IMG/VR virus record: IMGVR_UViG_2874945390_000010
Location: 1-42,776 of that record
Length of the DNA: 42,776 nucleotides
Direction: 5' to 3' (one strand)
Origin: a virus
Taxonomy: Duplodnaviria > Heunggongvirae > Uroviricota > Caudoviricetes
Part shown: one piece after another, positions 9,697 through 12,600 of the stretch
Position numbering within the stretch: the first letter of the stretch is position 1
How the letters are laid out: each line of letters opens with the position of its first letter
Program-made: the position numbers

Positions 9697-12600
9697 TCAC
9701 CGTCAAAGTGCGCCCCGTTATCCACGATGGCCCCTTTTTCCGGCACATGCTGCACGGCAGTGATGGCATACGTGCCGTCGTCGTTCTCACGGATACTCAC
9801 GCAGCGGAACAGGCGCTGGCGCAGCATCGGCAGCTTCAGCCCCCACACGCTGTATTCTGCAACGCCGTCAGGAACACGGCTCACTTTCACCTTCACGCCG
9901 TCGGTGACGGACTGGACCTCCACACTGACCGGATTCCCCTGCCCGTCAACCAGGCTTATCAGCGTGGTGCCGGAGGATGGCAGCGTGATTTCACGGTCGA
10001 GCGTCAGCGTCCGGGTCTGGCTGTTCACCGCCAGCACACGCCCACCGGTGCTGATCCCCGCATAGTCATCATCACAGATTTCAATGACATCGCCCGGTAC
10101 ATGGCGAAGCCCTTCGGCACCCACGCTGAAGTCCACGGTCTGCGTTTCCAGCAGTTCTGTTTTAATCAGCCACAGCCCGGCGCGGTGTGCCTGCCCCCGG
10201 CTGGTACAGCCAAAGGCATCCATCTTCGTGACGTTACGACCGTAACGGACAATGGCCTGCGTGTCCTCCACAAGCTCTGTCGCCGTCTCCCAGCCGTTGT
10301 TCGGGTCAATCCAGTTCACCTCAACGGCATTATGACGGTCCTTCAGGGCGCTGAAGCTGTAGCGGAACGGCGCGCCATCATCCGGCATCACCACATTACT
10401 GCGGTTATAGGTCCACACCTTATCCGATGGCCGGTCCTGCACGAACGTCAGCGTCTGCCCGTTCCATACCGGCATACAGCGCATCGCCGAGCAGAAATCA
10501 CTGAGCACATCCCACGCCTTGCGCTGCGTGGTCAGGTACGCATTACAGGTGATACGCGGCTCCGTGCCACCAAAGCCGTCCGGCACTGACTGGTCGCAGT
10601 ACTGGCCGATGACATACAGCGCCCATTTATCCACATCCGCCGCACCAAGACGTTTCCCCATGCCGTAGCGCGGATGGGTAAGCATATCCCACAGACACCA
10701 GGCCATGTTGTTGCTGTATGCCGGTTTTAACGTTCCGTCCCAGATACCGCTGTATTGCCGCGTCTGCGGGTTATAGTTCGACGGCACCTGCAGAATGCGC
10801 CCGCGAAGATGATAATTACGGCTCACCTGCTGGCTGCCGAACTGCTCCGAGTCCACCTGTACGCCGACCAGTGCCGTGTTCGGGTAGCACTGTTTCACAT
10901 CGATGATTTCGGTGTACGACGACCAGAGCGTTTTGTTCTGCAACTGGTCTGTGGTGCTGTCCGGTGTCATCCTGCGCATCCGGATATTAAACGGGCGCGG
11001 CGGCAGGTTACCCACCACCACCGAGGCCAGATACTGCGAAGTGGTTTTGCCCTTAATGGTGATGTCTTTTTCCGTCACCCAGCCACCGTTACGCTGTATC
11101 TGAACCAGCAGGCGGACTTCCGACGGATTCCGGTCACCCTTTGAGGTGGTTTCCACCAGTGCCTGCACACCGAAGGTCAGGCGCAGACGGTCGATGTTTG
11201 CCGACGTGATGGTCCGGGTGATCGGCGTGTCGTATTTCACTTCCGTACCCAGCACCGTCTCGGAGCCGGAGGATTCAAAGCCCTCCGGCGGTGTCTGCTC
11301 CTGCTCACCGGCCCGGAACACCACCGTGACGCCGGAGATATTGGTATTCCCCTCACTGTCCAGCACCGGCGTACTGTTCAGCAGCACGCTTTTTAATCCC
11401 TCCACAGGACCTTCAACCGGCCCTTCGCTGATGGCATCGATCACACTCAGCAGCTGCGTGGACTTCAGGTTGTCCTTCGCTTCGCGCGGGGTATGCCCCT
11501 TACTGCTGCCTTTACCCATTCCTCACGCTCCATAAACGACAAAACCGCCCGGAGGCGGTTTCACATAAAACATTTTGCATCAACGACCAATCACCACCAT
11601 ATCCCAGCAACTGCGCGTCGTCAGATGCCCGGGCACTGGCATTACTGTCCGCCAGACTGCTCTCATACGCAGCAAGCTGCTCACGAATCTTTTTCTGGTC
11701 GATGAGTGCTGCATTCTGCAAAAGCGTTTTTTTCTGCGCTTCTGACAGGGTTGATAATTCGCCCTGACTGACCTGATATTTCATCTTATCCAGTTCAGTA
11801 TTCTGCCCTGCCAGTGCTATCTGTTCTTTTTGCTGTTTAATCAGCCGTTTATAAATATCTTCTGTTTTTTCCGCTTCGGTCTTTTTATGCGCTTTGGGTT
11901 TATTTGCCTGGTTATTTCGCCAGGCATCCAGTGAGTTATTGATATAATTCTGTCTGGCTGTCTGATACGCCTCTCCCACAAAGCCAAGATCATCCGCAGC
12001 ATAGCCCAGTCGGGCACGCTCACGCGCTTCCCCCTTAAGGCGGGACAGAGCCAGTTCGCGCTTGCTGTTATTCAGTGCGGTCTGCTGTTTATCATCCAGG
12101 GTTGCCTGTGGTAGCCGTAACGGTACATTCACCAGCCCCTGTCGCTGCTGAAGTAATTCATTACCAAGCCCAAGAAGGCGATTAAACTCGGTATGCTGCC
12201 CATTCATGATCAACAGGGACTGATACGCTTTGTTTTGTTCCGCCGCCTGTTGACGGATCAACGCCACCCGTCGCTCCTCCAGCCCGGCAAGCACATCCTG
12301 AATGGATTGCGCTTTGCCCTGCATTTGAGTGAGACGGGATTGTTCAACTGCCAGTTGATTTGTTGCTTCGGCAAGCCCTTTAAGGATGATTTCAGCACCC
12401 GAACCACTCTGCGAACTTTCATCAAGCCAACGTTGATAATCAGCAATTTGATTTTTCAGTCCGCGAATTTTTCCTTCCTGTTCGCTAATCAGGCGATTTT
12501 GTTCCTCCAGTGCCTGCCGCGTCTTTTCCTCATTATCTGACGCTTCAGGAAGCGACATTGCCGACGTTTTCTGGCGAATTTCGTCGATTGTTGCGGCATA

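Follow-up and report, generated by a model that had tools for sequence, protein, structure and literature searches.

Layout of the prophage

The window (the whole 42.8-kb stretch of DNA that was analysed) contains an entire prophage, inserted at the tRNA-Ser/mtfA site of the Shigella boydii chromosome CP026836.1. Read from high to low coordinates, it opens with mtfA, tRNA-Ser and the integrase gene (mtfA/tRNA-Ser/int at 40.7–42.8 kb), followed by RecE and an immunity region with an IS630-family transposase, and then by Q, RusA, tRNA-Met, the lysis genes, HNH and terminase. Beyond these lie an HK97-like head and proximal tail, fragments of the gene for the tape-measure protein (TMP), fragments of J, an IS4 element, lom, stf, tfa and cdtABC. 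This is the gene order of an integrated lambdoid prophage with its integrase at the attachment site. The tail genes relevant here are all on the minus strand. The main features outside the TMP–J region are as follows.

1–2215, minus strand: complete cdtA-cdtB-cdtC operon, directly after tfa
1–6598, minus strand: distal genes lom, stf, tfa, cdtA, cdtB and cdtC, full length
6645–8070, minus strand: IS4, 1426 bp, with a transposase of 442–448 aa, in the J-lom spacer
20168–21925, minus strand: large terminase gene (TerL), with an in-frame stop at codon 97 (21635–21637)
30383–31414, plus strand: IS630-family (DDE_3) transposase ORF, in the early/replication region and in the opposite orientation
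40718–41743: int, adjoining tRNA-Ser (41796–41885) and mtfA

The products of lom, stf, tfa and cdtABC give uninterrupted tblastn alignments to the proteins of the cdt prophage of E. coli 2009C-3133. CdtA, CdtB and CdtC are respectively 97, 96 and 85% identical in amino acid sequence to the cdt-I/IV-type copy of that strain, and the operon is ~92–93% identical in nucleotide sequence to the best E. coli genomes, which suggests that the allele carried here may be somewhat divergent. Its location downstream of stf-tfa in a lambdoid prophage is that of a cdt-I/IV-type operon. Between Q and the lysis genes, where stx and other cargo genes sit in other lambdoid phages, we observed two tandem paralogous ORFs, both assigned to phrog_5772 (24784–25179 and 25330–25758, minus strand), and, between the Q antiterminator and the lysis genes, a tRNA-Met gene (26220–26295). 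The integrase is adjoined by a RecE-like ORF of 812 aa (38018–40456, plus strand), which combines an exonuclease VIII domain with a C-terminal Rv2179c-like 3′-5′ exoribonuclease domain.

IS4 is flanked by the 14-bp direct repeat CACCATTTCTGGTG at 6631–6644 and 8071–8084, a clean target-site duplication. As a side effect of the insertion, the longest lom ORF (5999–6856) has an artificial N-terminal extension of 86 codons that runs into IS4. The terminase gene, apart from its premature stop, is identical in length to the intact gene in Evi and in phage vB_EcoS-640R1 (L003, ON470612.1; hereafter 640R1).

The TMP–J region and its deletion junction

Between the tail chaperone genes and IS4 the following features were identified.

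8108–9148, minus strand: J fragment 3 (C-terminal, receptor-binding), 346 codons; diverges from relatives, with 52% amino acid identity
9145–9564, minus strand: J fragment 2, 139 codons, cut short at 9155 by the loss of 1 nt
9552–11519, minus strand: J fragment 1, 655 codons, the N-terminal part; matches phrog_31 (lambda J, E 0) and is 97.6% identical in amino acid sequence to the 640R1 J
11512–12735, minus strand: chimeric TMP ORF, 407 codons, with its TAA stop at 11512–11514
11541–11561, minus strand: native I–J intergenic hairpin, AAACCGCC-TCCG-GGCGGTTT, then T-rich
11580–11597, minus strand: remnant of gene I, the last 18 nt including the stop (GTGGTGATTGGTCGTTGA), recognised by alignment with the I gene of phage 434
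11595–11597, minus strand: deletion junction, placed by BLAST block ends, in-register contexts and a three-way alignment
12909–13949, minus strand: N-terminal TMP fragment, 346 codons, with its TAG stop at 12909–12911

The first-pass annotation held that a tape-measure ORF directly abuts J, that it ends 8 nt inside the J start, and that the M/L/K/I block is missing. All of this is borne out: J starts with the ATG at 11519, the two ORFs overlap at 11512–11519 (8 nt, ATGGGTAA), and the adjacency can be read directly off the sequence and is no matter of statistics. The description of the ORF itself calls for some revision. It does match TMP families (phrog_339, E 1e-90, and PF06120), but it is merely an internal segment of a TMP gene (approximately TMP residues 400–791) followed by 27 non-native codons, and that gene is also frameshifted further upstream: at 12922 a G run has lost one nucleotide (G4 against G5 in relatives), which parts the 346-codon N-terminal fragment from the 407-codon fragment. 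With this frameshift, and with the last ~285 of 1075 codons gone, no full-length tape-measure gene remains. Nor is J intact, the 1-nt deletions at 9571, which terminates fragment 1, and at 9155 having divided it into three ORFs (possibly through sequencing error). Elsewhere in the TMP gene, a 116-nt patch at 12381–12496 does not align to the relatives, which have 143 nt there, and a 6-nt in-frame tandem duplication (ATCAGA) is present at ~12644; both look like local mosaicism or tape-measure length variation.

In lambda-like phages the M, L, K and I genes were expected to lie between the tape measure and J, and this holds for every intact relative examined: the order TMP-M-L-K-I-J is found in Evi, 640R1, 434 and two E. 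coli prophages, with lom-stf downstream of J in the relatives (TMP-M-L-K-I-J-lom-stf). One of the two prophages, in E. coli 2014C-3075, occupies the same attachment site, between zinT and tRNA-Ser/mtfA; the other is the cdt prophage of E. coli 2009C-3133. In the S. boydii prophage, lambda-like character is confined to the tail tip, the module for head and proximal tail being HK97-like (Evi/phi467/HK544 type). In the 640R1 record the head protease is split by a 1-nt difference (4500–5098), where the S. boydii prophage has an intact 199-aa ORF, and the record also contains runs of N; the deposited ‘intact’ relatives are therefore not error-free.

Alignment to these relatives, which had been proposed as a check, located the endpoints of the lost segment and revealed no related intact phage in which TMP is adjacent to J. 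When positions 10900–14300 were used as a megablast query against 50,697 phage records, query positions 1–2706 (14300–11595) matched the G/T chaperones and TMP of Evi, phi467, 640R1 and their relatives at 96.5–97.5%, and query positions 2704–3401 (11597–10900) matched the end of I and J of lambda-like phages at 96–97%; none of the 50,697 records spanned both halves of the junction. In pairwise comparison, 12380–11595 aligns to 640R1 10943–11728 with 98.2% identity and 11597–9024 aligns to 640R1 14894–17468 with 95.3% identity. Relative to the intact state, 3168 bp are missing by comparison with 640R1 and 3167 bp by comparison with 2014C-3075. In 640R1, whose TMP gene is 3228 nt long (1075 codons), position 11595 corresponds to TMP nucleotide 2371, in codon 791; position 11597 falls 18 nt before the I stop codon in relatives. 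The lost DNA thus comprises M, L, K, the final ~857 nt of TMP and all of I except its last 18 nt. The proposal of a deletion junction that removed the tail-tip genes is thus supported by a gap of ~3.17 kb, with two amendments. The interval in which it was placed, 11480–11560, is the I–J spacer and the J start, and the breakpoint at 11595–11597 lies ~35 nt outside it. Furthermore, M, L, K and I are indeed lost, but the deletion starts inside TMP, at codon ~791 of 1075, and not at the TMP end; TMP is for this reason also without its ~285 C-terminal codons.

The rest of the prophage was searched for the missing genes, as had also been suggested. Tblastn with the 640R1 and 434 proteins yielded no match for M, L or K within the 42.8 kb (best E 0.36) and no protein-level match for I (best E 0.15). 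What has been observed directly is the deletion with its endpoints, and the lack of all four genes in the prophage.

The first-pass annotation had also remarked that the last codons of the TMP ORF run through a GC hairpin that looks non-coding. That reading was correct, since the stretch is the native I–J intergenic hairpin. In the alignment, the I gene of phage 434 ends at position 2518 of sequence L002 from that phage, 18 nt past the position at which homology begins again. What is left of I reads GTG GTG ATT GGT CGT TGA, and the same bases in the TMP frame are read as GGT GGT GAT TGG TCG TTG ATG ...; the I stop codon is bypassed because the TMP frame is offset by one base. After crossing the 60-nt I–J spacer, the frame meets a TAA made up of bases from J codons 2–3 (ATG GGT AAA) and stops there. 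The 27 non-native codons accordingly cover the I remnant in the wrong frame, the I–J spacer and the first 8 nt of J, and the C-terminal tail of the ORF, ...GDWSLMQNVLCETASGRFCRLWSVRNG before the stop, spans AAACCGCCTCCGGGCGGTTTT at 11561–11541. That the hairpin is read at all, in the wrong frame, follows from this bypassing of the I stop codon by the fusion.

The hairpin and its flanks are identical to phage 434/lambda in the alignment. It folds with an 8-bp GC-rich stem and a 4-nt loop within a structure of -20.3 kcal/mol (z = -2.6), and the phage 434 record OL657226 carries a ‘terminator’ annotation at 15466–15485, between I and the J ribosome-binding site. A scan with a simple terminator consensus did not call the I–J hairpin. 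A second GC hairpin with a T run (AACCGCTTCGGCGGTT TTTTTT), similar in form, is present on the minus strand at 13966–13981, after the tail chaperone gene T and before the start of TMP.

It might be argued that TMP followed by J is a functional alternative tail architecture, or that the fusion ORF is a functional new protein, given that the ORF is open for 407 codons and that its 8-nt overlap with J has the length of the native TMP/M overlap in Evi and 640R1. We find this hardly credible. The flanks are 96–98% identical in nucleotide sequence to phages that have all four genes, and this near-identity points to recent loss and not to a distinct lineage. The frameshift at 12922 severs the ORF from its own start, and the 27 codons at its end consist of a gene remnant read out of frame and an intergenic hairpin. 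J, too, is in three pieces, and the junction was not found in the other genomes or phages searched. The 8-nt overlap and the ‘coding’ hairpin are instead consequences of the deletion, by-products and not an evolved arrangement, and the match with the native TMP/M overlap is a coincidence.

Origin of the junction and state of the prophage

The two breakpoints have in common a microhomology of 3 bp, GTG on the gene strand, established by in-register comparison of the parental contexts. A 6-bp microhomology, TGGTGA, was considered from the three-way alignment and rejected: its two copies are offset by 3 nt, and GTG alone is truly shared.

The best explanation is a single microhomology-mediated illegitimate deletion of ~3.17 kb within one ancestral prophage of Evi type with a lambda-like tip, to which we assign a probability of about 0.92. 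Such a deletion would have joined TMP codon ~791 via GTG to a point 18 nt before the end of I, at the cost of M, L, K, almost the whole of I and the C-terminal quarter of TMP. As the fusion would have been out of frame with I, the TMP frame would skip the I stop, cross the I–J hairpin and stop at the TAA in J codons 2–3. The other decay events may have come before or after it.

A different origin can be envisaged, in which illegitimate recombination between two co-resident lambdoid prophages, or with an infecting phage, joined a TMP side and an I–J side from separate donors. Lambdoid phages are notoriously mosaic, and the two sides do differ in their affinities: the Evi/640R1 group is closer on the TMP side (98.2% identity, reaching 99.5% across 206 nt) than on the J side (95.3%), where other lambdoid phages and genomes supply the best matches, at ~97% (5426 complete E. 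coli genomes). No relative at least 99% identical on both sides of the junction, and hence no exact parent, was found in these searches. We nevertheless consider recombination between two prophages unlikely, as all relatives with the same TMP carry a lambda-like I–J segment in the same orientation ~3.2 kb downstream, and for that reason one deletion is enough. The divergence of J is to be expected from ordinary homologous mosaicism predating the deletion, and 3 bp of microhomology are what local slippage or illegitimate deletion typically shows. In function, a simple deletion and recombination between two prophages would in any case come to the same result.

The junction appears to be rare. 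A 401-nt probe centred on it gave matches in 4281 of 5426 complete E. coli genomes, to its halves only, and in none of the 5426 did any place cover at least 80% of the probe. Exact-match searches with a 27-nt junction probe (TTGCTGGGATATGGTGGTGATTGGTCG) gave nothing in IMG/VR, JGI metagenomes or the GTDB species representatives. Because GTDB includes a single genome for each species and Shigella is left out of the E. coli collection, these scans are uninformative on other Shigella strains. At the protein level, the exact fusion sequence occurs on a single contig, the 5.1-Mb chromosome CP026836.1, as does the exact J fragment; among the 15 listed members of the fusion-protein cluster (325 members), none except the query has the fusion tail.

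That the junction is in one assembly only, and that prophage tail genes are repeated (median 2–3 copies per E. coli genome) and can confuse assemblers, raises the question of whether 3.2 kb was dropped during assembly of the chromosome. Such an artefact is very improbable. The breakpoints share 3 bp only, leaving no repeat across which an assembler could collapse, the 5.1-Mb chromosome is finished, and the surrounding prophage bears many independent decay lesions. By the same token the 3.2-kb deletion cannot be a long-read error, because its breakpoints share only 3 bp. The single-base frameshifts at 12922, 9571 and 9155 may be either real decay or long-read sequencing errors, and the 3.2-kb deletion is unaffected by that choice.

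In assembly of the lambda tail, J, I, L, K, the tape-measure protein H and M form the initiator for polymerisation of the tail tube. Since four initiator proteins and the TMP C-terminus have been lost, no tails should be able to form, and the prophage would be unable to build them whichever way the junction arose. The inactivating lesions in virion-essential genes comprise the 3.17-kb deletion, the TerL nonsense codon and the frameshifts in TMP and J, to which the IS4 and IS630-family insertions are added. The further, independent lesions (TerL, TMP, J, IS4 and IS630-family) thus fit a decaying prophage. To judge from its sequence, this prophage is complete but probably dead, and the deletion within one ancestral prophage would represent neutral decay of an element kept for, or alongside, its cargo genes.

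A selective reading is also conceivable, in which loss of the tail tip was favoured as a ‘grounding’ event that locked cdtABC-lom-stf-tfa into the S. boydii lineage, the loss stopping virion production, or in which another lambdoid prophage of this chromosome provides tail-tip proteins in trans and the remnant is thereby still mobilised. We regard both as quite unlikely, and favour neutral decay following a single deletion.

The junction is of significance for annotation and strain history only: a pseudogene label is appropriate for the fragments of TMP and J and for the I remnant. On the genomic evidence, the cdt prophage is best regarded as probably non-inducible into infectious particles on its own, and because of this the cdt genes are probably vertically fixed rather than phage-transmissible. 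The mapped junction is a possible lineage marker for this S. boydii clone. Literature searches, by accession and for cdt prophages of S. boydii, returned no paper on this prophage or its deletion.

Comparison with known systems

The affected segment corresponds to the lambda-type H(TMP)-M-L-K-I-J module. It has the same gene order on both sides, the N-terminal and middle parts of TMP are 96–98% identical in nucleotide sequence to Evi/640R1, and the I 3′ end, the I–J hairpin and J are 95–97% identical to lambda-like phages, with lom-stf-tfa following J as in those phages. It differs from the lambda-type module in that 3.17 kb are missing, TMP and J are frameshifted and IS4 lies between J and lom.

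A deletion scar of this sort is ordinary in a cryptic prophage and a thoroughly well-known phenomenon. Rac, DLP12, Qin and e14, cryptic (‘grounded’) lambdoid prophages found in E. coli K-12, have been reviewed (PMC6379469). As in those elements, morphogenesis has here been lost via deletions, point lesions and IS elements, with some genes left intact. Unlike the K-12 remnants, the S. boydii prophage is ~42 kb, nearly full length, and both the integrase ORF and the attachment-site tRNA are present, which places it at an earlier stage of decay.

There is also a parallel among toxin genes. The cdt-I and cdt-IV operons of E. coli are described as framed by lambdoid prophage genes (Toth et al., 2009, as cited in PMC13459982), and in S. 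dysenteriae type 1 stx has become fixed in lambdoid prophages that are defective (PMC7819885). As in these systems, a toxin operon (here cdtABC) lies at the distal end of the late region, downstream of stf-tfa, in a lambdoid prophage that is in all probability virion-less, and IS elements are involved; the toxin, however, is a different one from stx. The S. boydii locus would then be one more case in which a toxin operon has survived the phage that brought it in, as stx has done in S. dysenteriae type 1.
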